Program-made: the position numbers and the translations under genes
The notes under the pieces: generated by a model
Database searches by the model: none
Told to the model about the DNA's origin: nothing
What the model saw: the letters and a program-made list of their open reading frames with translations, nothing else
Source: a virus
Reading direction: 5' to 3' (one strand)
DNA: 64,000 bases
Virus record (IMG/VR): IMGVR_UViG_3300033388_002987
Coordinates: 53,955 to 117,954 of that record
In this document: positions 32,784 to 54,225 of the stretch, in pieces
How the letters are laid out: every line of letters begins with the position of its first letter
Numbering within the stretch: the stretch's first letter is position 1

Positions 32784-32791
32784 TGGGTTCC

Positions 32792-35700
32792 TTACTTACA
32801 GTTTTTTATTTTATTAGTTGTTCTAGCCACTTCCCCAGCTATGAACTTATGACTAAACACGTCTGACGCTATGTCACCACTAACAACCTCTCTAACTTTA
32901 TTGCCTTCAGCAATAGCTACATCCTTATCACTAACTGCTTCTAGTCTTACTTTAGGTAACGTAGGCCCATTCATCCAAGATTTTTTAAGTCTCTCAGTCC
33001 ATACAATTCTAGGACCAGTGCCTGTTAATGCCTTTGCGTTGACTTGCTTAATCTCTTTAACATCTTTCTTAACCTGCTCTTGCTCTAAAACCATCGCAGT
33101 AAATGAGTCTACTAAGTAATCATGCATAGTACCTTTACGTTTACCTTGCATTCCTAACATAGTTAGTACAGTATCTATTAACACATCAAGTGCGTTAGTA
33201 AAGTATTCTTTAGGATTAGCAGGTTTTATACTGGCTAGCATTTTAATAACTTTAGGGTTGCTCATACCTTCTGCTAAGAATTCTTCCTTACTCTGCATCC
33301 ATAGTGCATCCATATCTGGGTCTGGTAACATATTAAATACTTCCCAGAATAAATCTTCAACTCTTTTAGTTAACTTGTCTTCAGGGTGTGCCTGCATATA
33401 CGCAACAGACCCAGCGTGTACTAACTCATGAAATCTAACGTACTCAGCATCTTGCTCATTAATGTATTTACTTATAATCTTATAATTTTCATCTGTTAGC
33501 TCTTTAACATCAGCTACTTCTTTTGTTGTTGACGTTGGTTTCAAGTCTTTACTATAATGGCTACTAAGTGCCTCTTTTACAACTTCACCATTAAGGTCTC
33601 CAAGTACTATAGTATTAGTATCCTTAGTGTATTGTCCTAGTATAATCTTACCTAAGTACCCTTCTGTAAACTGTCTAGTAATAAACTCAGGGTCTTCTAC
33701 TATACGTGTTCCCATTACATCCATTATCTTAGCTGAGTACATATCACTCATTTGCTTGTACTGGCCATATGCTGCAGAGTGGAAAGGGTTCCCTTTTCTA
33801 GCTAGGTCAACTGGTGATATATGAAAGTTAGTTATGTCAGATCCTTTATTATCCGACAGTATACCAGAATCCATAGCATTGTCAATTGGTGATACAAACT
33901 CGTTAGGGTATGACTCCGTTGATGACCCTACCACTGGTCTAGGTATAGTAGTCTTTTCCTTAAGCTTAACGTTAGGCTCTTGCCTAGTGTAAGTCTCTCC
34001 CACTCTATCATAATGTGCACCTTCGTAAGCTGCATGCTCAAATCTTATATCCTCATTTAGCAACTCAGTTCTAGCTGTCTCTGACTCATCATGCAGTTTA
34101 ACTAAATCTTGTTGTATACTCTCTACAGTACTAGCTTTATCTTTATCTGATGTACTTTCCTTAACATACTCAGCGTCAACAGCTTTAATGTCTTCTTTAC
34201 TAGCAGCATTAATACTGCTGTTAACACTATTTAATATCTCAGTAACCATACTATACTTAGTAGATACTTGTGCCGTACCTTTATTATATAATTTAGTCCC
34301 TTCAGTAACTTTATCAATAGCAAGTACATTAGCATCATGCACACCAAGCCCCTCAACCTCACTTAATACTAATGACTGTATAGAACCATCTATAAAGTGA
34401 ATTGGCACAACAGCACCAGATGCAAATGATTCAACCATCTTGTATCTCTTAGCTTGCCCACTTAATCTCTTATTATCTGCAAGTCTTACATTAGCTTGGC
34501 CAGACTCTTTAACCCCTTTGAGCAAGTCATAGTTAACTGCCTCGTTACCAAATATCATCATCTTACTTTTAGCATCACCTAATACAGTCTTAATTGCAGG
34601 CAGTGACTCTTCTAACGTCCCAATTATCTCATTAATCTCTGAGTCTTTCAAATGTCTACCAAGTTCTTTTTGTTTATTATCTACAGCTTTATCAAGCTTC
34701 TGTTTAAACAGTCTAAACATCATAGTAAATGAGTTATTTATCTTACGCCCAGCCTCTATATAATCTCCGTATGTCTCAGTAAACGTTTCTTCTAAAGCAG
34801 TACCAACACTAGCTTTAATATTATTACGTATATTATCAGCAAGTACCTCTGGTATTGTATACTTCTTACGTTGAGCTTCTGACATTTCTTGTACTTTCTT
34901 AGCCTCATTTAATGCTAACTGTATAGTAGCTTTACTACCATCTGCAGCTACCCATCCATCTTTAGTATTTTTCATACTGACACCGGAGTCTTTAATTATA
35001 GCTATTACTTGAGCTACATCTTGAGTACTTGAAATATTAGTATATAAACTCTCAATAGCATCATCAGCTATCGTACTTATAATCTTAGGTAGTCCAGAAC
35101 CATAATTAAATACCATAAACGGGTTCTTCATAAAGTTTCTACTAATAGTTTTTATAGCCTCATCTACACCAGTACTTAACGCTAACTCGGTAGCTCTCTT
35201 GTTGGCACGTACGTACCAACTACGTCTATCACCCTTAGGTAGGTTATCCTCAATAGTTTTGGCAATCTTAGGCAGCTTACGCGTCATTACCTCAGCAGGT
35301 GTATTATACGCATCAGTATAGCCGGCTTGCTCAGCCTGTCTACCATAACTAGTATTCTCATTAAAATCAAAGAATACTCCGCCTTTAGCTAGGAAGTTCT
35401 TAACATCTTTAATAATAGGCATTTGCAATATCTTAAGTATAAACCCTGACGTAACTGCATCTGTCTCAATAGGTAACTTAGACTCAAAACCAACTAATGT
35501 TTTATTCTTAGCTTCGTATTTATTAGTAGCTCTTAGCTCGGCAAGCCCACCTATAGTGTGCTCTATATCATGTGACCAGCCATTATCTTGCACCTCTATA
35601 AGTATCTCTAAGTCAGTTTTACCATCAGTAATCATCTTATCAAGTTTGGTCTTAAGTTCACTCCATTCTTTAAGTGCGTTAGCCTTTGACTTCTTATCTA

Positions 35701-38620
35701 TATCAACACCAAACGCCATAGCTAACGCTAACCTATGATCATCCATAAGCTCTTCTGTCACAGTAGCAGCCTCTATAGTAATAGCAAACCTATGTAGCTT
35801 CTTACCTTGAGGATTAAATGTATTAGAGTCTAATATGAATCTACCATTCTTAACAAATTTGTAAGGGAAGTACATCTCTGTCACACCAGACTCCTGCATC
35901 TGCTTGTGCCAATCTTCTAAGAAATCCATATCACTTTCTATAGCAAAGTTCTTACCATTAACACTTGGCTTAATAAGGTCATGTACTGTATTAGGGTCAA
36001 CCCATCCTAGTAACACTCTTAACTGTTGTTTACCTTCTTCAGTCTTTGTCATCTCAAAGTAAGAGTCCATATAACCATCAGTCCATTCCCAGCTAGTAGC
36101 CTCTTGCTTATTAACTGCTTCTACAGTCTTAGTAGCTGTATCATAATGCTTACCAATATCTGAGGAGTTACGTACAGTACGCTCTCTCAACGGTGCAGTA
36201 GTAGAAGGATATCTCATAGAAGTCTCTGTACCAAGTACTTTATTAGCATATCTACTACCAATACTTAACAGTTTATTCTTTCTAGGATTATCAAACCAAT
36301 CGTTAGCACCAGTAAACTTAAAGTGGCCAACACTCACATCAACACCTTCTTGCTCACCAAATATCTCCGATGATTTCTTAACACCTGTCTCTATTAACTT
36401 ATTATCTTCCATAGCAGCAAGTGCAGTAAGTCCTAACTCAGTTTTGAACTTAGCTTCCGTAACTTCTCTATTCTCACCTTCAACATCTTTAATCTTAAGC
36501 CCAAGGTTCTTATATATAATACTACCAATACTATTAGCGGCTGTTGATGTTAATCCATCAATATCCCCAACTCTTTCACGCTCTTCTTTAGTTAAAGAAT
36601 CCTCTACATTCTTACCAAGTAATCTATTTATATCTTCATCAGTCCTTTTACTTGCTCTTAAACTTCCATAGTTAACCATCCAATCATTGATAGCTAATGC
36701 CATTGCAGTAATAACTTCCTTAGGAAGTGTATAGTTACCAGGCTCTCCTTGTAATAGTAACCTCGTAAGAGATTGGTATGCTTCGGACGGTGTATTACTT
36801 GTAACATCTAAGTCAGATATCCATCTTTGATCAAGTCCTTGTTTAACGAATCTTCTTATGTACTTCTCAGTAGTATTAGTAAGCTTCTTAGCACCATCTA
36901 AATACTTAGCTTCTAAACCTTCTCCAACAGTTTGTTTTATAGCTTCAAAACCTTCTCCAAATATATTAGCAACAACATTTAAGTTATTGTATACCTTCTT
37001 AACAGTAAAGAAATCTGAAAGTCTTACAGCTTCAGCATCTTTCTTAAACCTTCTAGCAGGCTTATTTGCTAATAGTCTATCACCAATAGTACCTTCAAGA
37101 CCTAACTCAGAAAGTACCTTATCAGCTCTCTTCTCAAGCTTAATAATTTCTTTACTAGTTTTAATTCGCTCAGTAATAGTCTCGGTAGCTTTTGCATCTT
37201 CTAACCATTTAATATCTTCACGGATAGCAGCTAACTCTTTATTAAGCTCTGCAGTATTTATTGTTGTAGTTATAGGCTCTTTTACCTTAACTTCAGTTAC
37301 TTCCTCAACAGGTGCTTGTGCTTCAGCATCTAGACGCTCTGCTTCAGCTATATCGTCAGCACTATAGTCTTCGTACTTCTCTATACCATCCTTAGTCTTA
37401 GTAATAAAAGCTTCGTCTCTAGCTTTATCCTGAGCATCTTCAGTACCACCAATATCCGCATTATCTTTAGTAGCAGCTTTTACTTTCTCTACTTGAGTAT
37501 TAGGCTTACCTAATCTGTACTTATACGTCTTACCATTTTTAAGTTCAGCTCTTACTTCGTCTAGGAACTTAGTAACTTCAGCTCTTTTCTTAGCAGTCCA
37601 TGGCTTAAGCTCAGCGTGCTCTTTAGCTAATTTATTAACTTTATTTTTAACGGCAACCTTTAACTTAGAAGTATCTATACTAAAAGTATCTTTAAACTTT
37701 GATTCTTTTTTAGGTTTAGTTTTTTCAGGAGTAGTAGTATCTTTTTCTGAAATTTCAGCAACCTTTGGTGCCTGCTCGTCCAACATCTTTAAATTAGCAT
37801 CTAATAGAACATCAAATAGATTATTGAGCTCTTCACCTTTAAATCCTAATATCTGTAATACATTATTAAGAACAACTTCATACATATTACTAAGTCTACT
37901 AATTGGCTTACCAGGAACTACACTCATAAGTTCTTTCATAAATTCTGGGTTTGATAACGCCTCTGCCAGAAACTCATCAACATTAGTTTCCCAATATGTG
38001 CTCTTAAACTTTAACTTATCTTTATTAGTAAGTAGGTAAGTGTAAATATCCTCTATACGCTTAGTAGCTGGCTCGTTTGGGTTAGAGCTCATGTACTCTA
38101 TAGCACCTGCGTGTACAAGCTCATGCAGCAGAAAGTGTGTCCCTCTAGCCTCTTTAATCTGGTTAAATACGTTTTCTACTTCAGCATCCAGCCTACGAGT
38201 CATATCCTCTTCAGTCTGTAACGTACCAACGCCGTCTAGTGTTCCATCAGTAACTTGCTTATAGAAGTCAATAGCTATCTGCTTCTTAACATCCACATCA
38301 ACTACACTAGCAACTTCAACGCCTTTACCAACACTAAATCTGGCAGGGCTAAATTGCTTAATACCAGTACGTATTTGGCCTAAAGTATATGCAACGCTGT
38401 CTGTGAACTTAACCCCAGTAACATCTCTTATAAGACTACCAAAGCCCTCACTAAACTCTTGTAAGCTAGTATCACTAGCAGACTTCCCTGCAGTTTTTAC
38501 TACAAGCTTACCAAACAGTTTTTCAGCTACTTTAGCGTTATTAAGTATTCTTTCAATCTTCACCCTAGCAGCGGGTGTGCCTTGTAGTAGTGCAATAGCC
38601 TCTTTTAGTTGACAAGCCAC
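32792..38620 (-). CDS. N4-like virion RNA polymerase (single-subunit, T7 superfamily) catalytic chain flanked by two zincin-like domains
   Basis: NGRF (T/DxxGR-like), motif A ETDAVTSG, motif B RNFMKNPFMVFNYGSG (RxxxKx7YG), motif C GVHDAN; HELVH...EFLAE occurs twice. Confidence 0.88.
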   Translation of the reverse strand: MACQLKEAIALLQGTPAARVKIERILNNAKVAEKLFGKLVVKTAGKSASDTSLQEFSEGFGSLIRDVTGVKFTDSVAYTLGQIRTGIKQFSPARFSVGKGVEVASVVDVDVKKQIAIDFYKQVTDGTLDGVGTLQTEEDMTRRLDAEVENVFNQIKEARGTHFLLHELVHAGAIEYMSSNPNEPATKRIEDIYTYLLTNKDKLKFKSTYWETNVDEFLAEALSNPEFMKELMSVVPGKPISRLSNMYEVVLNNVLQILGFKGEELNNLFDVLLDANLKMLDEQAPKVAEISEKDTTTPEKTKPKKESKFKDTFSIDTSKLKVAVKNKVNKLAKEHAELKPWTAKKRAEVTKFLDEVRAELKNGKTYKYRLGKPNTQVEKVKAATKDNADIGGTEDAQDKARDEAFITKTKDGIEKYEDYSADDIAEAERLDAEAQAPVEEVTEVKVKEPITTTINTAELNKELAAIREDIKWLEDAKATETITERIKTSKEIIKLEKRADKVLSELGLEGTIGDRLLANKPARRFKKDAEAVRLSDFFTVKKVYNNLNVVANIFGEGFEAIKQTVGEGLEAKYLDGAKKLTNTTEKYIRRFVKQGLDQRWISDLDVTSNTPSEAYQSLTRLLLQGEPGNYTLPKEVITAMALAINDWMVNYGSLRASKRTDEDINRLLGKNVEDSLTKEERERVGDIDGLTSTAANSIGSIIYKNLGLKIKDVEGENREVTEAKFKTELGLTALAAMEDNKLIETGVKKSSEIFGEQEGVDVSVGHFKFTGANDWFDNPRKNKLLSIGSRYANKVLGTETSMRYPSTTAPLRERTVRNSSDIGKHYDTATKTVEAVNKQEATSWEWTDGYMDSYFEMTKTEEGKQQLRVLLGWVDPNTVHDLIKPSVNGKNFAIESDMDFLEDWHKQMQESGVTEMYFPYKFVKNGRFILDSNTFNPQGKKLHRFAITIEAATVTEELMDDHRLALAMAFGVDIDKKSKANALKEWSELKTKLDKMITDGKTDLEILIEVQDNGWSHDIEHTIGGLAELRATNKYEAKNKTLVGFESKLPIETDAVTSGFILKILQMPIIKDVKNFLAKGGVFFDFNENTSYGRQAEQAGYTDAYNTPAEVMTRKLPKIAKTIEDNLPKGDRRSWYVRANKRATELALSTGVDEAIKTISRNFMKNPFMVFNYGSGLPKIISTIADDAIESLYTNISSTQDVAQVIAIIKDSGVSMKNTKDGWVAADGSKATIQLALNEAKKVQEMSEAQRKKYTIPEVLADNIRNNIKASVGTALEETFTETYGDYIEAGRKINNSFTMMFRLFKQKLDKAVDNKQKELGRHLKDSEINEIIGTLEESLPAIKTVLGDAKSKMMIFGNEAVNYDLLKGVKESGQANVRLADNKRLSGQAKRYKMVESFASGAVVPIHFIDGSIQSLVLSEVEGLGVHDANVLAIDKVTEGTKLYNKGTAQVSTKYSMVTEILNSVNSSINAASKEDIKAVDAEYVKESTSDKDKASTVESIQQDLVKLHDESETARTELLNEDIRFEHAAYEGAHYDRVGETYTRQEPNVKLKEKTTIPRPVVGSSTESYPNEFVSPIDNAMDSGILSDNKGSDITNFHISPVDLARKGNPFHSAAYGQYKQMSDMYSAKIMDVMGTRIVEDPEFITRQFTEGYLGKIILGQYTKDTNTIVLGDLNGEVVKEALSSHYSKDLKPTSTTKEVADVKELTDENYKIISKYINEQDAEYVRFHELVHAGSVAYMQAHPEDKLTKRVEDLFWEVFNMLPDPDMDALWMQSKEEFLAEGMSNPKVIKMLASIKPANPKEYFTNALDVLIDTVLTMLGMQGKRKGTMHDYLVDSFTAMVLEQEQVKKDVKEIKQVNAKALTGTGPRIVWTERLKKSWMNGPTLPKVRLEAVSDKDVAIAEGNKVREVVSGDIASDVFSHKFIAGEVARTTNKIKNCK

Positions 38621-38808
38621 TACGAGTTACCTAACAACTTAGACAGCTCTTTCTCTGCAAGTGCTTTGATAATAGAATTGACAGGTTGTTGGACACTATC
38701 ATAGGTACGGCTAGTTCCATTGTGATGCTCTTTAACTATCAATACTCTCTCTTCCAGAGGAAGAGAAGGTGAAACATATAAGTACCCAGGATTTTCTATA
38801 AATGTCAT
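38620..38808 (-). CDS. 62-aa protein wedged within the vRNAP locus
   Basis: TAATG overlap with the upstream gene, TAGTG overlap with the downstream gene; AAGGA RBS. Confidence 0.6.
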   Translation of the reverse strand: MTFIENPGYLYVSPSLPLEERVLIVKEHHNGTSRTYDSVQQPVNSIIKALAEKELSKLLGNS

Positions 38809-41800
38809 TAACAGTCCTTCATGTCTATATTATTTTTAGCTAACAGTTGCTGTAACCCTTTACTAGATTTAACTAGTAACATTACATTATCTCTAATTGT
38901 GGCATTATACTCAGATTCAGTATCTTTCGCAACACTGAGTATTTCGTTAACTGGTTTTGCTCTAGCCTTTTTCTTAGCTTTTTCTATCTTAACATCTAAA
39001 GCATCAAGCTCTTTATTAGTCTCATCCAACTCATCTTGTGTAGCAATAGGGTCAGCCTCCACAGGAGCCTCTTTAGTCTCAACAGGAGTACTTACCTTAG
39101 AAGTTTCTTTTGGAGCCTCCCCTGGTCTAATCATATTCCTTATAGATGTATCCTCAGCACCAGTAGGATCTTCTATAAAGTTGTCTTCAAATCCATATCT
39201 ACTATATAACCGTACAAGACGACTTAAAGTACCTACCTCAGGATCTGCTGTCAAAAGTATATCACTATCACCAAAGTTCTCTATAACCTTGGAAAGCAGT
39301 TTACTTGCAAGGCCCTTACCTCTACTGTCAGCACCTACAAATAGTTTACTCAAAGTAATGTCACCATTATCGCTTTGTACGATGTGTGCTGTGGCATTAC
39401 CACCTATACTGTAAATTGTAGTATCACCTTTTTTAGTGATCTTAATAGCCTCCACAAGAGCCTTCGTATCCTCTTTAGAAGTACTTACCTCAGTATCTTC
39501 TTTTGGAGCCTTCTTGACCTCTTTCTGTGACTTTGGTGACGCAGTCTTACCATTAGCAATTCGCTCAAGTTTATCTAACTCAACTTGCTCTTTCTTCATA
39601 ACCTCTGCAAGATTAGCAACTATTGCCACACCCTTATAAGGTCTACCAGCAAGCATTACTTTAATATCATTAGAAGTATTAACAGCTACAGACCTAGCTG
39701 CAGCCTTCGTATCCTCATCCCAAGTCTTCATTATCTTTATATTAGGGTTAACATCTTTAGCACCAACAACCCAAGGCATACCTTGCTCTACATCCCACTC
39801 TTCAACTGCACTAACAAACGTAGCAATCTTACTACGCTGACTTGCAACAAAGTTATTAATCTTTTCAGTGGCATTAGCATTAGGACCTTTAAGTAGCTGA
39901 TTAGCAAACTGTAAAACCCCAAGGCCAAACCTACCACCACCAATTAGTTTCTCTCTAGTAACATCGTATAACGTACTAACAGATGTCTTCTTAAGCTCAA
40001 GTAAATCAACTTGCATCTGATTTAATTCAGCCATAGCAGCTTCATCCTCAAGCACGCTATTTATATGTTTTAACGAGGCAGACGAGCTACCTATAATCTG
40101 AGCTACTTTAGTATCTAAATCAATATCTTTACTATTAATAATACTATCAAGCTCTTTACTACTAGTAGCAGTAGACAGTGCTGTCAACTGTCTTATCTTA
40201 GCATCCACAGCCTTAAGTCTTAGTGGGCCAGCTCCTGCATCCTTTAACTCTTGACGCATCTCTGTCATAGCATTAATACCAGTAGCAACAGCCTCTAACA
40301 TACCAGGCATATAATCAGTAGTATCACCGCCAGCTTCTCTAGCAACAAGCTCTGCAGTGTAATCCTTTATTTGCTGTACGCCATCGGCGTGCATATTATC
40401 AAAGTCTTTACTAATAGCTTGTAAGCCTTCAAACTGCTTCTCATTAAGGCTCTCTAAGTCTTCTAAAGACTCACCTTCAACAGAGTAAGTAGCCATATCT
40501 GCTTCTTCTAAAGCAATAGCAGATGCTTTATCAACATCTTTAGGTACAGCTCCCCCAGTAGTACTTACATCGTAAGTATCTACATTAAGGTCACCTTGAT
40601 CTCTATTACGTTGCTTGTTAGCTTCATCAATACCATCTAGGTCTGGATTAGCTTTTTTAGCAGCAGTTACTGTGTCGTGGCCTGGTCTTACAGCTTCCTT
40701 AGCTTTAGTAGCTAGGTTTTTAGCTTTGTCAACTGCAGCTTCAGTCTTACCCCCAACTATCTCAGCACCTCTACCTAGTACCTCACCACCACCTTTAAGG
40801 GCAGCACCCATACCGAATCCAATAGCAGCTTGATGTGCAGTCTCAGGATCAGTAACTATATCAAGTACAGACCTCTCACCTTCTTTTTGTGTGGCAATAG
40901 CCTCACTTACAGCTTCAGCTCCCTCTTGTAAGAACTCTCCACCACCTGATTTAGTAATTCTTTTAATAACACCACTCTTAGTGCCATCAGCAGTTTTCTT
41001 TACTATATCACTGATACCAGATTTTATCAGTAACTTCTCTGGCACTAGTACAGCTATCTCGGTAAAGAATGTCTGAGCAAGTTTACCTTTACTCATTGGT
41101 TTATTATTATTCTTTTCATACTCTTCAGCGTAGTTTGATGTTCTAGTAGCAGCAACTACTGCAGGTCCACCTGGAATACCTAGTGACAATATCTCACCAG
41201 CACTACCTGCAAGGATTCTGTCTAGTTGGCTCATACCATGTGCAAGTGACTTAATATAGTCAACAGGGTTATCTGCGTTCTTCCATAACTCAGCAGACTC
41301 TTGCATAGCAGTATTATGCTCATTAATAGTTTCTTCAGATACACCAAACTCTCTTTGAGCTGTAGTAGTATCACGAATACCTTCTATTGTTTTACGTGAA
41401 TCTTCATCTATAAAAATACCTGCTTTACCATCACCACCTAATGACTTCTCAACTTCAGATGCCCAAGCATCATACTTAGCAATATTCTCTTTACCTACCA
41501 GGTTCTCTAACATATTAACAGTATCAGCACCAAATTTAGCTACAGCAGCTTGCGCTATATCAATAGTCTCACCGATTCGGCCTTCGGAATCTGACTTAAT
41601 CAATGATGCATACGCTTCAGTACTTGATGCTTTTGTAGGAGTTAGCGGCATTTTACCAATACTAGTTATTCCATCTACAACTGTATCATCTGGTAGTGAG
41701 TACTTACCACCAATAGTACTTATCACACCTAAGTTTCTACCATAGTTATTACGTGGACTTTTATCAAAAGGATTAGGATTAACTTCTTGGTAACTCTCAA

Positions 41801-42221
41801 CTATTGCAGGCAAGTTACTGTAGGATGTCCCAGCTCCTAATATCTCTTTAGCAGAAGCTGCTTGAGCATTACCAGCAGCAAACACATCTTGCACTGATGC
41901 AGGCCTACCCAATTCAACAGATAATAGTGCTTGTTGTTCTTGGATCCTGTTTACGTTACGTGGGTTATTGAACCAAGATTGGCCCTTTGTAGTTTCGTAT
42001 GTATCTATCCCAAGAGCTCTTGTAGAGCTAGGGTCATCACGTAATGTATATGTGTCTGCATCATAGATATCAGATACAACATCTAGTTTATTACGTTTTT
42101 TAGCAGTTCGTTCTTGTAGTTTCGCAAACTTATCGTCGGCTATAGAAGTGGGATTAATAGCTGCAACTTCTGCATCTATGTTAGATAGGTATTGGTTAAA
42201 GTCAAAATTAGCCACGTACAT
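38808..42221 (-). CDS. large ejection protein, part 1 of the split vRNAP locus, with SNase-like and GNAT domains
   Basis: 1137 aa (GTG at 42215 may be the true start, given RBS spacing); DADT/RALGIDTYE/YGR nuclease motifs; RGKGLA...LYSRYGF GNAT motifs; only Cys is the last residue. Confidence 0.72.
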   Translation of the reverse strand: MYVANFDFNQYLSNIDAEVAAINPTSIADDKFAKLQERTAKKRNKLDVVSDIYDADTYTLRDDPSSTRALGIDTYETTKGQSWFNNPRNVNRIQEQQALLSVELGRPASVQDVFAAGNAQAASAKEILGAGTSYSNLPAIVESYQEVNPNPFDKSPRNNYGRNLGVISTIGGKYSLPDDTVVDGITSIGKMPLTPTKASSTEAYASLIKSDSEGRIGETIDIAQAAVAKFGADTVNMLENLVGKENIAKYDAWASEVEKSLGGDGKAGIFIDEDSRKTIEGIRDTTTAQREFGVSEETINEHNTAMQESAELWKNADNPVDYIKSLAHGMSQLDRILAGSAGEILSLGIPGGPAVVAATRTSNYAEEYEKNNNKPMSKGKLAQTFFTEIAVLVPEKLLIKSGISDIVKKTADGTKSGVIKRITKSGGGEFLQEGAEAVSEAIATQKEGERSVLDIVTDPETAHQAAIGFGMGAALKGGGEVLGRGAEIVGGKTEAAVDKAKNLATKAKEAVRPGHDTVTAAKKANPDLDGIDEANKQRNRDQGDLNVDTYDVSTTGGAVPKDVDKASAIALEEADMATYSVEGESLEDLESLNEKQFEGLQAISKDFDNMHADGVQQIKDYTAELVAREAGGDTTDYMPGMLEAVATGINAMTEMRQELKDAGAGPLRLKAVDAKIRQLTALSTATSSKELDSIINSKDIDLDTKVAQIIGSSSASLKHINSVLEDEAAMAELNQMQVDLLELKKTSVSTLYDVTREKLIGGGRFGLGVLQFANQLLKGPNANATEKINNFVASQRSKIATFVSAVEEWDVEQGMPWVVGAKDVNPNIKIMKTWDEDTKAAARSVAVNTSNDIKVMLAGRPYKGVAIVANLAEVMKKEQVELDKLERIANGKTASPKSQKEVKKAPKEDTEVSTSKEDTKALVEAIKITKKGDTTIYSIGGNATAHIVQSDNGDITLSKLFVGADSRGKGLASKLLSKVIENFGDSDILLTADPEVGTLSRLVRLYSRYGFEDNFIEDPTGAEDTSIRNMIRPGEAPKETSKVSTPVETKEAPVEADPIATQDELDETNKELDALDVKIEKAKKKARAKPVNEILSVAKDTESEYNATIRDNVMLLVKSSKGLQQLLAKNNIDMKDC

Positions 42222-42269: not shown

Positions 42270-43727
42270 CTATGGTGCTAGTGCAGTACCAGCGGCAGTA
42301 GATAGACTAAGGATATCGCCTAGGTCCCAATACCCCTGCTGTGCGTATCTAGCTTTAGCACGTGCAACAAACTTCTTCTTATCAGAAGTATTCATTTTAT
42401 TAATAGTAGATTCATTAGTTACTAAGAACTTATCAACTGCATCCACATCTTCAGCATCTGTGCTAGTAAGTCCTGAATATAGCTCAGTGGCTACACTAAA
42501 CTTACCATTACCACTAGCTTTCTTAGATTGCTTAGTGGCCCATGCCTTTGCAGCATCAACTGTACTAATACCCCTAGGCATTTTAGGAAAGATTTCTCTA
42601 TACCCACTTACAGTCTTCGCATCTCCAATAACGCCAGCTTTGTACTTAGCCATTGCTAATTGCTCGCTGATAGTTGGTCCTTTAGATTTAGGGAATACCT
42701 CATCCATTTTACTAAGTGCATCAAGCTTAGCTGTTCCACTGATATTATTGTTACCCATGATAGCAGCTCTAAGAGCCTTCTCTTGGTCAGCAAGAGGTAT
42801 ATCAGCAGTCCCTGCTTTGACAGCTTTGACTTCTTTAATTAGGTCAGGAACAGTTTCTACTTTACCAACATTGTTAAGTCTATTACTCAACTCACCAAGG
42901 CCAGATTCAGCTAAAGCTTTCTGGTGTGCTTCATCACTTCTAACCTCAGCAGCTTTAACAGCTTCTGGTGAAAGTGGGGTAACTCCTGTACCAACTCTGT
43001 CAGGAGCAACAGGGTTCAACTCATCTCTTACACCTTGCTTATCCTTCTTACCGAATGATGTTCCAAATAAATTATTAGATGCATCACCTAAGAACTGTCC
43101 TACAGTACTAACAGCGTTTGGAACAGTTAATTGATTAAGCATACGTTGGCCAGTAGCATCTATTTCATAAGGCTTTCCAGAATGCACATTATTAATCATA
43201 TTACGAAGCGCGTTAGAACGTTGCTTATGTTGTTGTGAAACTTCACGTGGAGCAACAGGCACCTGCACAGGATTGTTAAACTTATCAAATGCTATAGCGT
43301 AGTCTTCACCTTTCTTAGTAATCTCACTATCCAGCACTTCCTGCTTAGCAGTTAGAGCAGCATTCCGAGCAATGATTGCCTCACGCTCAGCTTTGTTACC
43401 TTTTACAGCTTCTATTCCAGCAGTAGGTTTAGTCTTAACTACACCAGCAAGCGCAGCAGCCAATGCTTTATCACTAGCAACTTTAGTTGCATAAGTATCA
43501 GCAGCTCTACCCTCTTGTGCTTGCTGTATACCAAGTAAGCTTTCAGCTCTTTGGTTAGTAACTACTTGTTGTGCTAGTCTATTCTTCTCTCTTTGCTCAG
43601 CAGCAAGTCTATCTTGAATAGCCCCTACTCCTGAAGTGAATCCAGAAAAACCTCTCTGAGCATTAGCTAAAGCTTGATTAGAGCCTCCAAAGTTAACACT
43701 TACTGGATTCCATCTTGGTTGTGCCAT
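42270..43727 (-). CDS. internal virion/ejection protein (N4 gp51-like position)
   Basis: Ala/Gln/Gly-rich, Cys-free, syntenic upstream of vRNAP. Confidence 0.6.
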   Translation of the reverse strand: MAQPRWNPVSVNFGGSNQALANAQRGFSGFTSGVGAIQDRLAAEQREKNRLAQQVVTNQRAESLLGIQQAQEGRAADTYATKVASDKALAAALAGVVKTKPTAGIEAVKGNKAEREAIIARNAALTAKQEVLDSEITKKGEDYAIAFDKFNNPVQVPVAPREVSQQHKQRSNALRNMINNVHSGKPYEIDATGQRMLNQLTVPNAVSTVGQFLGDASNNLFGTSFGKKDKQGVRDELNPVAPDRVGTGVTPLSPEAVKAAEVRSDEAHQKALAESGLGELSNRLNNVGKVETVPDLIKEVKAVKAGTADIPLADQEKALRAAIMGNNNISGTAKLDALSKMDEVFPKSKGPTISEQLAMAKYKAGVIGDAKTVSGYREIFPKMPRGISTVDAAKAWATKQSKKASGNGKFSVATELYSGLTSTDAEDVDAVDKFLVTNESTINKMNTSDKKKFVARAKARYAQQGYWDLGDILSLSTAAGTALAP

Positions 43728-43729
43728 AA

Positions 43730-44242
43730 TTATCCTACCTTAGACGTATCTACATATTTTCTAGTAGTAGCAGCTTTAGAAGCAGCAATCTGATCAGCTG
43801 TCATAGCTCCACCACCAAGTGCTAACCCAACATCTGCAGCATTCTGAATCTGTTGATTAATAAGTTGTCCCTGTGTCCCAATATTTCTATTAGCAAGTCC
43901 TTTTTCAAAGTCAAATTGATCTTCTGCAAGTCCAAGAGTTTTATATCCTGTATATGCACTAGCAAGAGAACCAAGTCCTTGTGCTACGTCAAGCGCATCT
44001 CCTAACCCAAATCCGCCACCAGCATCTTGTGCCCCATATCCTTCATTAACAACAGACTGCAAACCACCAGAGCCTTTTAAATTGGTAAATGATTGATTTA
44101 CACCAGCTTGCTCCCCAGGTGTAAGTTTCATGAATGCGGCCTGATCTAATCCTTGGCTACCTAAGAACTGTCCAAAATCAGTACTATTATCCCCAAATCC
44201 GAACATGCCTAAGCCTCTAGATGTTAATGTATTCTCTGCCAT
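43730..44242 (-). CDS. small internal virion/ejection protein (N4 gp52-like position)
   Basis: Gly/Ala-rich, Cys-free; AGGAG RBS; synteny. Confidence 0.6.
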   Translation of the reverse strand: MAENTLTSRGLGMFGFGDNSTDFGQFLGSQGLDQAAFMKLTPGEQAGVNQSFTNLKGSGGLQSVVNEGYGAQDAGGGFGLGDALDVAQGLGSLASAYTGYKTLGLAEDQFDFEKGLANRNIGTQGQLINQQIQNAADVGLALGGGAMTADQIAASKAATTRKYVDTSKVG

Positions 44243-44294: not shown

Positions 44295-46583
44295 TTATAC
44301 CATACTAAGTTTTAATTTAGCATCAAAGTAATCTTTACATTTATCATCATAACTAAACAATACATCGTTATTATACTGTATACCTACTGCTTTATAAATC
44401 ATTAAATCTACACTTTCTATATATGGACTAACTTCAGTAGTAGCTAATCCAGCAACATACTCCACACTCAAATACTTATCTAAGTTATCTTGTTTATCCT
44501 CAAACTCATCCATACGTGTATCAAACAAAGAGGCGAATATATCAGTCTCTCTTTCAAGGGCTTCATAACCTTCGGCTGTTTGCATATTAAGAGCTTGCGC
44601 ACTGACTGATAATGTTGTTGCTGTCATTGTCAGTATATTAGCATCTGTAAATCCACCTTCAAATCCCCCACCTACATAGATAGAGGCAGCTATAACAGCA
44701 ACTGTTCCTAAGGCCCTTAAGAATTCATTATCAGTAAGTTTAAATAGCATCTCTAATGCTAGTTGTATTGCCATACCCGCAGCAATATTAATAGCAAGCT
44801 GTATAAGTATATCTACAAACTTACCTCCAAGGCCTGTAACTATAGTTAAAATAACCATTATAACAAACCCAGCTATTTGCATAAATGAGCCAAATGCTTC
44901 TGTCTCATAATATTCCAAGTGTGTTACATTAGCAGCATATGTAGACACTAACATACTCTTCATTAGTAACTCTGACTGTTCTATAGGAGACAGTGAAGAG
45001 GTAAAGAAATATGAAATAGGTACAAAGAACTCAGGTGCTGAGACATTAAATGCCTTAACACCCCACAGTCCTTCTCTATCAATAGCAGTAACACTATTAA
45101 GTTCTCCTATCACTATCTGCGTGTAATATTCTTCGACTCCTTGAAACTGCATAGTAAGAGTAGACCCTACTACATTATGAGTATAATTCCCCACAGGCCC
45201 GATCACTCCAGATACCACTGTTCTAGTTTGACTTGTCCATGCCATAGCATGATTCATAGTATGCTCTTGAAAAGTAGCTACGAAATCATTATTACCATCT
45301 GTGTCTATAAGTCCTGAGTCATCATACATAAAGTTAAACATTTGAAATAATGTTCTAGATACTACTTTAGAAGTATCAGAAGGCTTAACTCCAAAGTGTA
45401 TGAAAGCATCCTCAACGTTATCAATAGTAGGACTAGCCACTAGTCCTTCGGTAAATGTTTCTAAATCAACTCCAAGTATCTCAGTCATAGCTTCAGTGTC
45501 ACTGAGTAAAGCAGATCCTACTAGATCAATAGTATTTACCGTATTAGCTCTCAAAGTTATAACTGGTAACATCTCTAACTCTCCTATATACGTGTTAGAA
45601 GAATCGAGTGTAGGGTGTAAAGCTAACTCTGGGCTATATACCCAATAAAACCACTCACCAAGGACAGTAGTATAATATTTAACAATATAGAACTGTAGTG
45701 GAGAGTATGCCGGTTCATGCAGTACTACTAAGTGTTCCCCTACTACAGTAGTAGGGCCTACAACCACTATATCAACTGAATCAACTACTGTGCCTATAGG
45801 GACAACTTCATCAATATTACTAAGCTCTATAGTAACATCACTTACAACACCTGAAATAGTACTTTCTACTAACGTTCTCTCAGAAACAACTGTATTTACA
45901 TTATCAGTAGTAACATCTATATTAGTAACTACAACAGTTGTTGTAGTAGTAATAGTTGTGGTAATATCTTCTGATGTACTAATAGTTATATCGTACTCAT
46001 TAGTAGTATAGTTATAGTCAATAGTATCTACATTATATGTAAATCCATTATACAGTAGATTATTATTGTAAGGGGTATATCCATACAGTGTTTGTAACTC
46101 AAACCCTACATATTCTTCCTTAGTGGGAACCTGTAACTTAGAGTCTATAATAGTTACATCAAGTCCAGTCTCTACATCTATTATAGTTTTAAGTATAGTA
46201 TTATCTAAGATTCTAGCACTGATATTAGACTCCGGTAACCCGTAAATAGCTGTATCTCTACCGTACTTAAAGTATCCGTTAATCCTACTTCTAGCAACAC
46301 TTGATATTTTCATGAGTTTTTCTATTACAGTAGCATCTGGATCAGCTTGATGATCTAATGCTAATCTAGACATCCATGAGTCTATATCATCATCAGTCAT
46401 CATCCGCTGAGTAACAACCTCAACATCTATAACATCCTCATCCTTTATTCCAAATAAACTAAACGTAAACTCAGCTACAGCATCTAAAGACGAAGGCCAC
46501 ACTACCGCTAATATTTGACCTAGTAGTGGTCCAACAATAACAACTGATATAATCTTAGTAATCGCTTTTACAAAACTACTCAC
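44295..46583 (-). CDS. structural/ejection protein with hydrophobic N-terminus and C-terminal TM-like helices (N4 gp53-like position)
   Basis: 762 aa, GTG start overlapping the upstream stop; hydrophobic segments FMQIAGFVIMVILTIVTGLG and LGTVAVIAASIYVGG; Thr/Val-rich beta region. Confidence 0.62.
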   Translation of the reverse strand: MSSFVKAITKIISVVIVGPLLGQILAVVWPSSLDAVAEFTFSLFGIKDEDVIDVEVVTQRMMTDDDIDSWMSRLALDHQADPDATVIEKLMKISSVARSRINGYFKYGRDTAIYGLPESNISARILDNTILKTIIDVETGLDVTIIDSKLQVPTKEEYVGFELQTLYGYTPYNNNLLYNGFTYNVDTIDYNYTTNEYDITISTSEDITTTITTTTTVVVTNIDVTTDNVNTVVSERTLVESTISGVVSDVTIELSNIDEVVPIGTVVDSVDIVVVGPTTVVGEHLVVLHEPAYSPLQFYIVKYYTTVLGEWFYWVYSPELALHPTLDSSNTYIGELEMLPVITLRANTVNTIDLVGSALLSDTEAMTEILGVDLETFTEGLVASPTIDNVEDAFIHFGVKPSDTSKVVSRTLFQMFNFMYDDSGLIDTDGNNDFVATFQEHTMNHAMAWTSQTRTVVSGVIGPVGNYTHNVVGSTLTMQFQGVEEYYTQIVIGELNSVTAIDREGLWGVKAFNVSAPEFFVPISYFFTSSLSPIEQSELLMKSMLVSTYAANVTHLEYYETEAFGSFMQIAGFVIMVILTIVTGLGGKFVDILIQLAINIAAGMAIQLALEMLFKLTDNEFLRALGTVAVIAASIYVGGGFEGGFTDANILTMTATTLSVSAQALNMQTAEGYEALERETDIFASLFDTRMDEFEDKQDNLDKYLSVEYVAGLATTEVSPYIESVDLMIYKAVGIQYNNDVLFSYDDKCKDYFDAKLKLSMV

Positions 46584-47052
46584 TAGTAAACCCTAATTGG
46601 TTATATAGCTTTGTGAATTTAGTAGTCATATCACTTATCTTAATTACTAATGGAGTTCCGTGATTATGATAGTTACGTATGCTATACCCTACAGTAAGAG
46701 ACTTTAAATAGACAGCATCATCTGTATGAGGTACTACAAGTATTTTGTGGGAAGGAAACTGTGTAAACACTTCGTAAAACATTGCAACAGAAGCTATAGG
46801 ATCACCCCCCCAAATACTTATACCTTCTCCATGTTTCTCAATAATCGTTGTATATATAAACCCAACAAGTTTACCATCATTCATAACTTTATATGCATAC
46901 CCATTCTCAATACTATTAATCATCCTATTCTTATATGTTAACTCATCCATATCATAAGTCACATCAGAAATATACGTGTAGTGTATATCTACATCACTTA
47001 TCTGTGCAGGAGCAACAGTATACTCTTTACCGTACTTAGTAGTATAAACCAT
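46576..47052 (-). CDS. GNAT-like acyltransferase (putative)
   Basis: TVAPAQISDV (beta1/alpha1), YKVMNDGKLVGFIY (beta2-3), C-terminal KLYNQLGF; lacks a clear R/QxxGxG CoA-binding motif. Confidence 0.55.
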   Translation of the reverse strand: MVYTTKYGKEYTVAPAQISDVDIHYTYISDVTYDMDELTYKNRMINSIENGYAYKVMNDGKLVGFIYTTIIEKHGEGISIWGGDPIASVAMFYEVFTQFPSHKILVVPHTDDAVYLKSLTVGYSIRNYHNHGTPLVIKISDMTTKFTKLYNQLGFTSE

Positions 47053-47924
47053 TATTGAGCCTTACCGTTCTTATGAAGTACACACGAGCCATAGAACCCA
47101 CCTAGTCCAGAGGCAACACATAAAACACTAGTTTGCACTCTCACATCATCAATAGCCATACAAAGTTCTAGTACAGCACTTACACCTTGTGCGTGTCCTA
47201 CCTCATCTTTATAATACAGAACTTCTTTACCTCGAACTAGCTCTTCCTCTGCTGCATTATTAGAGGCTGTTCTAGTGCCATGTGGCTTAACTACATCACA
47301 TGGTGTACTAACAAGAGCATAACCTTCTACTGTAGTATTAAACGGGTTACGGTCATACCTATACGCCCATTTAGTATCTGTCACTTCTAGAGGTGTTACT
47401 GTATTGCTGAGCACTATAATAGCTATGCCATCTGCTACAGTAATAGGTATACCATGCTCTTTAAATATTCGCAATGTATTAAAGCTTGTGCGCTCTTCTG
47501 CAATAATAATAACTTCCTCACAGACACCGTCATTTAAAAGTCTTTGAGCTTCATAAATACTATGCATACTGCTAGCACATGTATTACTGTTTATATTAGC
47601 GTACACAACTAATTCATTATTTTCCATTTCACCTATCCACTGGTGCATACTATAAGCTGTAGACTCCTTAATAATTATAGAAGGTTTCGTGTAAGTAACA
47701 GTGCCTACATAGCGACTATTTACCGAAACTATATCTCTACTCTCTGATTGGTGAATATTAAATCCTCCAGCATACAGCACAGCTGTAGGCTTTGATAAAG
47801 TTATCTGGTTTATTAGATTTAAGTACTGCTTAGTAGTGAAATCTACCCTGTTTATATTATCAATCTCTAAGTGATCACCACAATTTATTGTAGCCTTTAT
47901 ATACTCGTAATGTTTGATATACAT
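47052..47924 (-). CDS. minimal beta-ketoacyl-ACP synthase (FabB/FabF-like thiolase fold)
   Basis: NTCASS (catalytic Cys), ADGIAIIVL (GEGA-like), PHGTRT (His), KDEVGHAQG (Lys/His), SGLGG C-terminal motif. Confidence 0.88.
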   Translation of the reverse strand: MYIKHYEYIKATINCGDHLEIDNINRVDFTTKQYLNLINQITLSKPTAVLYAGGFNIHQSESRDIVSVNSRYVGTVTYTKPSIIIKESTAYSMHQWIGEMENNELVVYANINSNTCASSMHSIYEAQRLLNDGVCEEVIIIAEERTSFNTLRIFKEHGIPITVADGIAIIVLSNTVTPLEVTDTKWAYRYDRNPFNTTVEGYALVSTPCDVVKPHGTRTASNNAAEEELVRGKEVLYYKDEVGHAQGVSAVLELCMAIDDVRVQTSVLCVASGLGGFYGSCVLHKNGKAQ

Positions 47925-48148
47925 TTATCTACCATCTCTTTAATAGTAATATTTGAAAAATCTACTGTTGCGAATGGGTCAGTCTTAATAGGGATATCTC
48001 CAAAGTAGTTATATTTGTCATCCAGCTCCATGAACAGTACAGTAACCCCAAAGCTATCAAGGTTAGCATCGGTTAATATGTTAGCTAAGGTAACTCTATT
48101 ACCTTTTTCTTCTCGAATCTTAGAGTTAATAAACTCTAAAACTTCCAT
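47897..48148 (-). CDS. acyl carrier protein
   Basis: 83 aa; DANLDSFGVTVLFMELDDKY matches the ACP phosphopantetheine site consensus DLGxDSLDxxELxxxLEExF; ends TIKEMVDKC (helix IV-like). Confidence 0.82.
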   Translation of the reverse strand: MEVLEFINSKIREEKGNRVTLANILTDANLDSFGVTVLFMELDDKYNYFGDIPIKTDPFATVDFSNITIKEMVDKCISNITSI

Positions 48149-48612
48149 TAAATCTCTCCAATAGGGTCAGTAGTAACAGTAATTCCAAGCCCATCCATAG
48201 CGTCTTTCATAACACTATCAACAACATTAACTTTAATCGTATCTGGTATTGCATTAGCATCTTGTGCAACAGAATAAGCAACTGACCAACTATCAAGTGT
48301 TTGCTTAAGTAACTTCTGCTTAGCATCATCATCAAAGCCTTTAGCTTGTCTAATAGCTAGTGCAGTCTGAGCTTCAGTAAGATTAACTTTCTCTTCTGTA
48401 ATAGCCTCTTGCATAGCAAATCCTATACCATTCTGGAATGCAGCAGGTATCATCGCTGTATAAATCTCACCAGCAGCTTCTCTAGTAAGTTCATTATTAA
48501 CAATCGCTTCATCAACGTGAGCTCTTGCTAACTTTAGCAAATCACCTACGTAACCTCCATCATCTATTGTTGCAGTACCTACAACGCTTTCCCATGTAAT
48601 ATCAACAGCCAT
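48148..48612 (-). CDS. virion structural protein (N4 gp54-like)
   Basis: GDLLKLARAHV...ITREAAGEIY and TEAQTAL...KGFDDDAKQK patterns; synteny; AAGGA RBS. Confidence 0.65.
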   Translation of the reverse strand: MAVDITWESVVGTATIDDGGYVGDLLKLARAHVDEAIVNNELTREAAGEIYTAMIPAAFQNGIGFAMQEAITEEKVNLTEAQTALAIRQAKGFDDDAKQKLLKQTLDSWSVAYSVAQDANAIPDTIKVNVVDSVMKDAMDGLGITVTTDPIGEI

Positions 48613-49337: not shown

Positions 49338-50114
49338 TTATTCCTTTAGGTTGTCAAGGTATGTGGTGATTTCCTTTACTTGTGTATCTGCTAAGTTGAA
49401 CCACTCACCATGTGAGTTACACTCTTTGTATTTTATATGTAGAGACTTCTCTACTTGCTTAGCGTCACCAACATATTGTGAGTATACTAGCGTCAAAGGT
49501 ACTGGCGATGAGGTAACTAACTTCTTGAACCTACCTTCGACATTACTAGACATACCTATCTTATAAGTATTGTTATACTTAATAACATAGATATAATCAG
49601 GTGTACGTTTACTAGCCGTTATTGTAAGAGCTGTCTTTAGAGTGCTGTATTGTGCGATAGTCAGTACCTGCACAACTGTTTTAGTATTCCTAATAGTTCC
49701 TGATATTATTGTAGCAGTGGTTGTGTCTCCAAACTTCCCAGTTCGCTGTAGCGCTTTAAGTCTTCTAATAATATTAGAATGTGGCTGACTAAACTCGGTA
49801 GCAAGTATAAACGTATGTAGTGTGTCAACTGGTACACCTGCAGTATAATCAGTACCAGCTATCCTACTGCTATGTACCCTAGGATCACCGACCTTAGGCA
49901 TAAACGTCATTGTCTGTTTATTTGCAATAGTACCGTTAATAGTGTACGAAACTTTACTATGAGTATCACGTAACTCCTTATAGCACTCATACATATCATC
50001 TTTAAACTCAGTCATGGAGTTCCAGTCAACTGTAATAGTAGTATCTTTTTTAAGTAAGTTGTATTTTTCTTGGAATGCTCTGTAGTATGGAAGGGTAGTA
50101 GGTAATGGGTTCAT
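49338..50114 (-). CDS. T5orf172/GIY-YIG-like endonuclease with Rha-like segment
   Basis: YIYVIKYNNTYKIGMSSNVEGRFKKL...EKSLHIKY...GEWF; LATEFSQPHSNIIRRL. Confidence 0.75.
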   Translation of the reverse strand: MNPLPTTLPYYRAFQEKYNLLKKDTTITVDWNSMTEFKDDMYECYKELRDTHSKVSYTINGTIANKQTMTFMPKVGDPRVHSSRIAGTDYTAGVPVDTLHTFILATEFSQPHSNIIRRLKALQRTGKFGDTTTATIISGTIRNTKTVVQVLTIAQYSTLKTALTITASKRTPDYIYVIKYNNTYKIGMSSNVEGRFKKLVTSSPVPLTLVYSQYVGDAKQVEKSLHIKYKECNSHGEWFNLADTQVKEITTYLDNLKE

Positions 50115-53781: not shown

Positions 53782-54225
53782 CTAAATAGTACCTAAACCT
53801 CCGTAAGCTGCCTGATCTCTAGTAGTTTGCTCTTGAGCCATACCCATAGCAGCTTGTGCTACACTAGGATCTAGCTCACCAGCTTGTATCATCTGAGCTA
53901 TTTGCTCTTGGCCAATCTGGCCTTCTAGTATACCACCGGCTAATTGCTGTGCTTGAACTTCTTGAGGCATGATAGGTGATTGCTGTTGTCTCATCATATC
54001 ACCAAGCCCTTGCATTATCTCAGCTTCTGCTTGAGCCTTACCGGCTTGTGCGCCTGCTTGTAATGTTTGAGCTTGTTTTAATTGAGCTTCACCATTAATA
54101 TTAGCAGTAGTAGCATCTAGCCCAGCATTAGACTGGTAATACGGATTCTGAGCAGTTTGCTGCTGAGGAGCTCCTAAGCCTTGTTGTGAAACTCTTGACG
54201 GGTGCTGTGGTAAATCTTGTGGCAT
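53782..54225 (-). CDS. Gln/Ala/Gly-rich hypothetical protein
   Basis: TAATG-coupled to the GIY-YIG gene; AAGGA RBS. Confidence 0.65.
   Translation of the reverse strand: MPQDLPQHPSRVSQQGLGAPQQQTAQNPYYQSNAGLDATTANINGEAQLKQAQTLQAGAQAGKAQAEAEIMQGLGDMMRQQQSPIMPQEVQAQQLAGGILEGQIGQEQIAQMIQAGELDPSVAQAAMGMAQEQTTRDQAAYGGLGTI

Follow-up and report, generated by a model that had tools for sequence, protein, structure and literature searches.

A carrier protein, a mini-ketosynthase and a GNAT-fold protein at the tail tube/plug junction of an N4-like phage: a candidate acyl-transfer cassette

Why does an N4-like phage carry genes for an acyl carrier protein (ACP), a small ketosynthase (KS) and a GNAT-fold protein between the genes for its tail tube and its tail plug? 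The question is raised by a stretch of viral DNA of 64,000 nucleotides (the window; positions 53,955 to 117,954 of IMG/VR record IMGVR_UViG_3300033388_002987), which is the final 64 kb of a complete viral record of 117,954 bp with direct terminal repeats. The three cassette genes are real, under selection and linked, and they encode known kinds of enzymes in a previously undescribed context. We see an even chance that they form a private ACP-dependent acyl-transfer pathway that serves tail/ejectosome morphogenesis or entry, not host metabolism. The acyl group is probably put on something needed for tail assembly or entry.

In N4, the tail tube consists of gp54 and is corked by a hydrophobic knot of gp53, the tail plug (PMC13434306). 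The corresponding junction in the window contains the following genes:

48148..48612, minus strand: gp54-like tail-tube gene, 154 aa, upstream of the ACP gene (phrog_2050 virion structural protein, E = 5e-14)
47897..48148, minus strand: ACP-like gene, 83 aa, with LDS31FG at the expected phosphopantetheine site
47052..47924, minus strand: mini-ketosynthase gene of the KAS I/II type, 290 aa, with Cys116-His215-His244 and Lys239
46576..47052, minus strand: GNAT-fold gene, 158 aa, without a canonical pyrophosphate loop, in the position of internal virion protein A (IVP-A)
44295..46583, minus strand: gp53-like tail-plug gene, 762 aa, with a GTG start (phrog_2220, E = 1e-24)

The gene order is thus gp54-like, ACP, KS, GNAT and gp53-like, and all four junctions could be read directly. 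The gp54-like/ACP junction is TAATG, in which the stop of the gp54-like gene overlaps the ACP start; the ACP and KS genes overlap by 28 nt; the KS/GNAT junction is again TAATG; and the GNAT/gp53-like junction is GTGAGTAG, an 8-nt overlap with the GTG start. An earlier note on this DNA, made from the sequence alone, had placed three open reading frames (ORFs) at these coordinates on the minus strand, coupled by TAATG, 28-nt, TAATG and 8-nt overlaps, and had reported LDS in the ACP and TCASS, HGT and GH in the KS. All of this was found as described; the motifs read LDSFG in the ACP and NTCASS, HGTRT and GHAQG in the KS. A scan for promoters and terminators gave counts no different from those in shuffled sequences.

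Identity of the cassette proteins

Because the three cassette proteins of the window all fall below Pfam thresholds, protein families and structure models were used for identification. In PHROGs, nothing passed the threshold for the cassette proteins, and two PHROGs of unknown function (28189 and 35856) were returned. Conservation, profiles and folds uphold the gene identities (ACP, ketosynthase and GNAT-like protein) that the earlier note had assigned.

In the ACP family, D30-S31 is invariant across 33 homologues. The best solved match to the family profile was NodF (1fh1, E = 2.4e-5), in which IDSLG aligned with the phage DS, and the profile also matched dozens of solved ACPs and D-alanyl carrier proteins at E values of 2e-5 to 1e-2. 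In the alignments with solved ACPs, the phage DS falls on the phosphopantetheine serine. The window ACP had no PF00550 match at E <= 1, and the homologue in the cultured Alteromonas phage V19 scored 20.7 bits, just under the cut-off of 20.8.

A collection of 5.8 billion proteins contained 189 KS homologues at E <= 1e-3, and an exhaustive profile search gave 516 representatives at the same E value, 39 of them at E <= 1e-30. The residues C116 (NTCASS), H215 (HGTGT), K239 and H244 (GHTQGAS) are invariant in 33 diverse members, down to 44% identity; the window KS reads HGTRT where most relatives read HGTGT. The family profile matched FabF (E = 6e-5) with the HGTGT and GH motifs aligned. The AlphaFold2 (AF2) model of the KS (pLDDT 93.9) matched FabB, FabF and the act KS in Foldseek at E = 1e-11. 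In VIA, the best match was 7f28, with a Z score of 27.8 and a root-mean-square deviation (rmsd) of 2.5 Å over 262 of the 290 residues, and solved KAS II, FabB and polyketide synthase (PKS) ketosynthases tied at Z scores of 26 to 28. The structural alignment covers the full length of the 400-residue targets. Compared with bacterial KAS I/II (FabB, FabF) and the ketosynthases of type II PKSs (ApeO, act KS), the phage KS has the same thiolase fold over the whole chain, the same Cys-His-His triad and Lys, and the HGTGT and GHxxGA motifs, at an rmsd of 2.4 to 2.5 Å. It differs from FabF in being about 120 residues shorter, with loops and insertions trimmed, in scoring below Pfam thresholds and in being found only in phages. 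The model thus indicates that the phage KS is a complete thiolase-fold C-H-H condensing enzyme with trimmed loops.

In Pfam, the window KS had FabH-family matches only, below threshold (18.2 bits versus 26.6), and DNA and protein searches of GenBank phages with this KS gave no match. KS matches in 'phage' records of Enterococcus, Listeria and Staphylococcus were rejected as bacterial fab operons in unverified assemblies. One such record (GenBank OR846615.1, 'Enterococcus phage Efs 1-1-1' NODE_29; locus L048) has consecutive ORFs whose sizes correspond to those of a bacterial fab operon: FabH, ACP, FabD, FabG, FabF, AccB, FabZ, AccC, AccD and AccA. It looks like host DNA filed as phage, so that its KS match does not count as a phage ketosynthase.

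The AF2 model of the third protein (pLDDT 95.6) has the expected order of fold elements of a GNAT (beta1-alpha1-alpha2-beta2-4-alpha3-beta5-alpha4-beta6). Foldseek matched it to GNATs at E = 1.7e-5, and the VIA matches included Ard1 (Z 10.9, rmsd 3.4 Å over 132 residues), RimI (Z 10.6) and FeeM (Z 8.9). N-terminal acetyltransferases and FeeM are thus among structural matches that are tied within about 2 Z units, so that no subfamily can be named. The family profile matched the GNAT 3bln (E = 0.0025), all ESM Atlas structure rows for the model were GNATs, and the neighbours in BFVD and the Atlas were generic only. A reading of this gene as a phosphopantetheinyl transferase (PPTase) was ruled out, the fold being that of a GNAT. 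The loop between beta4 and alpha3 reads W81-G-G-D-P-I-A-S and not the motif A consensus Q/RxxGxG/A, which confirms the earlier observation that the coenzyme A (CoA) loop is missing; relatives have K/G-D-x-I in the close clade and R-R-K-P in the distant clade. A likeness to HlyC gained no support. Structure searches yielded generic GNATs, the protein had no Pfam match, and the 50 best structural neighbours listed include no member of the toxin-activating acyltransferases (HlyC/ApxC, PF02794), which does not in itself exclude that family.

None of 33 members of the GNAT family had a Pfam match, and no residue is invariant over the 33 homologues. Mean column identity is 21% for the GNAT and 57% for the KS, indicating that the GNAT evolves much faster. 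Prediction of a GNAT-ACP complex gave a score of 0.36, against 0.00 for the best of three controls, with at least 97% of contacts agreeing between runs and a partner pLDDT of at least 77. Of 80 solved complexes, 58 attain the mark used for such predictions, as do 2 of 110 mismatched pairs; scores of 0.60 or less comprised just 7 of the 80 solved complexes plus both mismatches that passed, so the support from the GNAT-ACP score is weak.

Searches of the whole genome of 117,954 bp for ACPS (PPTase), Acyl_transf_1 (FabD), AMP-binding and a further PP-binding domain gave no match, so that priming and loading of the ACP would fall to host enzymes. The claim of such a reliance on host loading enzymes, made earlier for the window, thus holds for the complete genome with respect to PPTase and FabD.

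Linkage to tail and ejection genes

At the 45 metagenomic loci fetched via the KS, the gene order is the same: genes for an ACP (about 80 aa), a KS (about 285 aa) and a third protein (about 160 aa) precede that for a plug homologue of 700 to 930 aa. KS identity among the cassette loci falls to 32%, and at every N4-like locus tested, hidden Markov models (HMMs) of the three families confirmed an ACP and a GNAT. The GNAT gene is relocated upstream of the ACP gene at two loci (L003 and L017). In one lineage (L043:5767-6858, plus strand; protein P0142), the ACP and KS are fused in a single ORF of 363 aa, a fusion that, as read from the sequence, is a Rosetta-stone link between the two proteins.

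In the cultured Alteromonas schitoviruses V19 and vB_AmeP-R22Y (R22Y), the same tube/plug junction holds genes for the ACP and the GNAT (hhalign 99.2% each), and the KS is absent. None of the three genes is present in five classical Schitoviridae (N4, PT15-A5, Littlefix, 12VC501 and 1.097.O), in which gp53 directly follows gp54.

A similar trio was found in an unrelated podovirus of 57 kb (MW202545.1), which has an ACP-like ORF (DIDSLD), a 314-aa KS and then a 146-aa ORF. Its KS passed both PF02801 (58.2 bits) and PF00109 (28.4 bits) and matched the window KS family at 99% in hhalign. The 146-aa product could be assigned to no family by hhalign, Pfam, PHROGs or PDB searches. The trio is located between a virion structural gene and genes for a 639-aa protein, two more proteins and an SLT-domain internal virion protein; by its sequence, this downstream gene run is an ejection module. 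The synteny check proposed in the earlier note therefore found the trio to be not sporadic but linked to structural or ejection genes, both in relatives and in a second podovirus lineage.

The position of the GNAT gene has a counterpart in other podoviruses. Podoviral ejection operons start with IVP-A, right after the tubular tail B gene, and IVP-A (T7 gp13, P22 gp14 and epsilon15 homologues) is a small nonstructural assembly gene that is acetyltransferase-like by HHpred (Hardies et al., 2016, PMC4819975). Comparison with the T7 and P22 gene orders placed the GNAT gene in the IVP-A slot, which directly follows the gene for the tail tube or nozzle and precedes those for the plug and ejection proteins. 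The proteins are similar in size (138 to 151 aa for T7 gp13, PF11090, and P22 gp14, PF11039, versus 158 aa for the phage GNAT), and both folds are acetyltransferase-like. Unlike the window phage, T7 and P22 have no ACP or ketosynthase beside IVP-A. Homology of the GNAT to IVP-A was rejected, since hhalign probabilities were 0.4% with the profile of T7 gp13 and 0.2% with that of P22 gp14; for the T7 gp13 profile, no solved relative was found. With the same slot and fold and no detectable homology, the GNAT is an analogue of IVP-A and not a demonstrable member of that family.

The phage is N4-like. Identity of its N4 gp56-type capsid protein to those of cultured Schitoviridae is about 33%, the structural genes of the window phage are on the minus strand, and the gp53-like gene had tblastn matches to the plug genes of V19 and R22Y. 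Downstream of the plug gene is the following pair:

42270..44242, minus strand: genes of 170 aa and 485 aa in the slots of N4 gp52 (outer-membrane pore) and gp51 (periplasmic tunnel), assigned by position only

N4 gp52 and gp51 are membrane-active ejection proteins (PMC13434306). Two other features of the window were observed. At the split virion RNA polymerase locus (28485-42221, minus strand) there are three large genes, of 1137, 1942 and 1432 aa. At 49338-50114 (minus strand), between the capsid gene and a 207-aa structural gene, lies a gene for a protein of 258 aa whose T5orf172/MUG113 domain matched Pfam at E = 1e-15, and this gene resembles a homing-endonuclease-type insertion within the late operon.

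A proposed pathway, its acceptor and its alternatives

In the favoured explanation, the cassette would be expressed together with the late structural genes. A host PPTase would convert the phage ACP to holo-ACP, which host FabD would malonylate. The mini-KS would load an acyl primer from the host pool onto Cys116, and condensation of this primer with malonyl-ACP would irreversibly leave a 3-oxoacyl chain on the phage ACP. The GNAT would then pass this chain on to an amine; the acceptor may belong to the plug and ejection apparatus, whose genes lie immediately downstream, or be something that this apparatus requires. In V19 and R22Y, which have no KS, host enzymes would have to acylate the phage ACP. 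The pathway is supported by the folds, catalytic residues, conservation, gene linkage and lack of accessory enzymes, from which we infer its chemistry. The invariant ACP serine and the full KS catalytic set argue for chemistry. The interpretation in the earlier note, a dedicated acyl relay that lipidates virion proteins or builds a virion-associated lipid, is supported in part.

Several observations weigh against this pathway. The cassette proteins of the window miss every Pfam gathering threshold. The GNAT family has no invariant residue, so catalysis is not assured, and the third gene is not a GNAT in L020, L045 and possibly L047. Co-transcription of the cassette with the late genes is something that we infer from the overlaps only. 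Distant ACP and mini-KS pairs in other phages adjoin fatty-acid desaturases, and these neighbours point to a lipid product in those distant lineages. In T7, moreover, IVP-A is known as an assembly factor only.

Two of the distant loci (L056:3090-5318 and L054:173-1908) have an ACP-like ORF and a mini-KS with desaturases (PF00487, PF03405) and not with a GNAT, and one desaturase-pair phage has a T-even GP38 adhesin gene nearby. These pairings suggest a wider family of phage acyl-chain cassettes.

The start of the plug protein is the simplest candidate for an acceptor. In the window, the N-terminal segment of about 45 aa of the gp53-like protein (46449-46583) is hydrophobic, and hydrophobic helices are present in the C-terminal part. 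At most cassette-bearing loci, the downstream protein has M-G or M-S at its start, then a helix rich in Val, Asp and Ile and, in many cases, the motif W-x-x-I-x-x-P-[IV]-L-E. An HMM trained on the first 40 residues from 16 N4-like loci was searched against 2,229 N-termini, taken from the genome and every locus. Outside the training lineages, E values under 0.1 were confined to the ORF that immediately follows the cassette:

MW202545.1: E = 5e-8
L043: E = 5e-5
L036-39: E = 2e-4
R22Y: E = 2e-3
V19: E = 1e-2
L031: E = 0.03

The first unrelated ORF appeared at E > 1 only. The plugs of the five classical Schitoviridae did not match this N-terminal HMM, which also missed six cassette-bearing loci (L013, L014, L020, L034, L042 and L045). 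Classical plugs share a different N-terminus, MG[LW]FSSK (L061:19538-22195, which is N4 gp53; L060:2353-4524; L051:2880-4964; L050:2745-5045). A universal acceptor tag was rejected, since Gly2 is not conserved (Ser2 in the window; Pro, Ala or Asn in others) and the HMM misses several lineages. The plug N-terminal segment is also compositionally biased. As judged from these sequences, the association between the plug N-terminus and the cassette is real but partial. The N-terminus may serve as a substrate or docking element, but a block of genes simply inherited together would fit the association equally well. The specific proposal that the phage fatty-acylates its own plug or ejection protein, most simply at the plug N-terminal amine, via the ACP, the KS and the GNAT in the IVP-A position, is therefore offered tentatively, and we rate it as rather unlikely in this exact form.

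The lack of a plug acceptor site conserved in all lineages would suit a different acceptor. The same machinery may act on a small molecule or an envelope component, such as an amino acid, a polyamine, a lipid head group or a cell-wall amine, and yield an N-acyl product that acts late, for example in lysis, membrane remodelling at the assembly site, exclusion or signalling. FeeM, an N-acyl amino acid synthase, is a structural neighbour of the GNAT (Z 8.9); NodF, the best solved match to the ACP, belongs with NodE and NodA to a system that acylates a sugar amine; and the distant pairs joined to desaturases would be lipid-making. We nevertheless consider this alternative unlikely, as it leaves unexplained both the exact tube/plug or nozzle/ejection junction in three lineages and the IVP-A slot of the cassette. 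Alternatively, the GNAT may be a noncatalytic, IVP-A-like assembly chaperone for the plug and ejection proteins, with the ACP (with or without the KS) having an unrelated role or serving as an assembly cofactor. A GNAT family with no invariant residue, no CoA loop and much faster evolution than the KS (21% versus 57% mean column identity) would fit this explanation. The invariance of the ACP serine and of the entire KS catalytic set makes it improbable, as does the ACP-GNAT adjacency, which is kept where the KS has been lost (V19, R22Y) or the order permuted (L003, L017).

Two further explanations were considered. The GNAT may be an upstream loader or decarboxylase in the style of CurA and GphF, which would place an acetyl starter on the ACP for the KS to extend into a mini-polyketide starter unit, with a release enzyme located elsewhere or supplied by the host. 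GNAT-like decarboxylases of carrier-protein-bound malonate are known (PMC11685415), and a GNAT, an ACP and a KS are the content of such loading modules. In V19 and R22Y, however, the absence of a KS would leave a useless acetyl-ACP; the genome has no thioesterase or further PKS gene, and CurA-type GNATs are not among the structural neighbours listed, a list that is not conclusive. This explanation is accordingly judged very improbable. We assign a still lower probability to an ordinary set of auxiliary metabolic genes (AMGs) that boosts or redirects host fatty-acid synthesis, as proposed for the R22Y ACP. The ACP and KS do belong to fatty-acid-synthesis families, and R22Y gp30 is annotated as an AMG in print (PMC11705849), but the proteins of the cassette are highly derived (a KS 120 aa shorter than FabF, no Pfam matches) and phage-private, no reductase or dehydratase accompanies them, and the genes are fixed in a tail/ejection operon with overlapping frames and a GNAT partner.

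Known systems and significance

Rhizobial NodF/NodE/NodA is the textbook three-part analogue of the cassette. Each system has an ACP and a C-H-H ketosynthase of its own together with an N-acyltransferase (predicted in the phage), and both rely, in the phage by prediction, on housekeeping PPTase, FabD and reductases. They differ in that NodE is full length (about 400 aa, versus 290 aa for the phage KS) and in that the Nod acceptor is a chito-oligosaccharide, whereas the phage cassette lies in a virion operon.

The step assigned to the GNAT also has precedents. Carrier-protein-dependent GNATs are an established class that includes GdvG, FeeM, the CurA and GphF loaders and SbzI (PMC11685415). GdvG/AprG (goadvionin, in which a ribosomal peptide is acylated), the selidamide maturases, FeeM and SbzI take the acyl group from a carrier protein and not from CoA (PMC11685415, PMC8784127). 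Like these enzymes, the phage GNAT is encoded beside an ACP and has no CoA pyrophosphate loop. Unlike it, they belong to bacterial secondary metabolism and work with large PKS or fatty-acid synthase partners, and the tied structural matches of the phage GNAT reveal no specific relationship to any of them.

Part of the locus type has been published. The ACP gp30 of R22Y was described as an AMG, and neither its GNAT partner nor its structural context was noted (PMC11705849). This schitovirus ACP is homologous to that of the window and shares its tube/plug position, and the next gene encodes a homologous GNAT; as in V19, there is no KS. A published survey of N4-like viruses makes no mention of the three cassette genes, and no phage-made ACP-dependent acylation pathway tied to virion morphogenesis was described in the literature searched. 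The earlier statement that no such system had been described needs qualification in two respects, as the IVP-A slot was already known to be acetyltransferase-like (PMC4819975) and the R22Y ACP was in print as an AMG (PMC11705849).

With all its catalytic residues in 290 aa, the mini-ketosynthase also merits attention as a minimal condensing enzyme. Because the cultured Alteromonas phages V19 and R22Y carry the ACP-GNAT core, the question of its function is directly testable. If the pathway is real, it would add a post-translational or lipid chemistry step to tail/ejectosome assembly, provide a testable function for the IVP-A slot, which has been unexplained since T7 genetics, and correct the printed AMG label of the R22Y ACP. 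If the acceptor is the phage's own plug or ejection protein, that protein would correspond, in a bacterial virus, to the N-myristoylated proteins with which nonenveloped animal viruses penetrate membranes, and the acetyltransferase-like IVP-A proteins of T7 and P22 may be descended from, or may still be, real acyltransferases.

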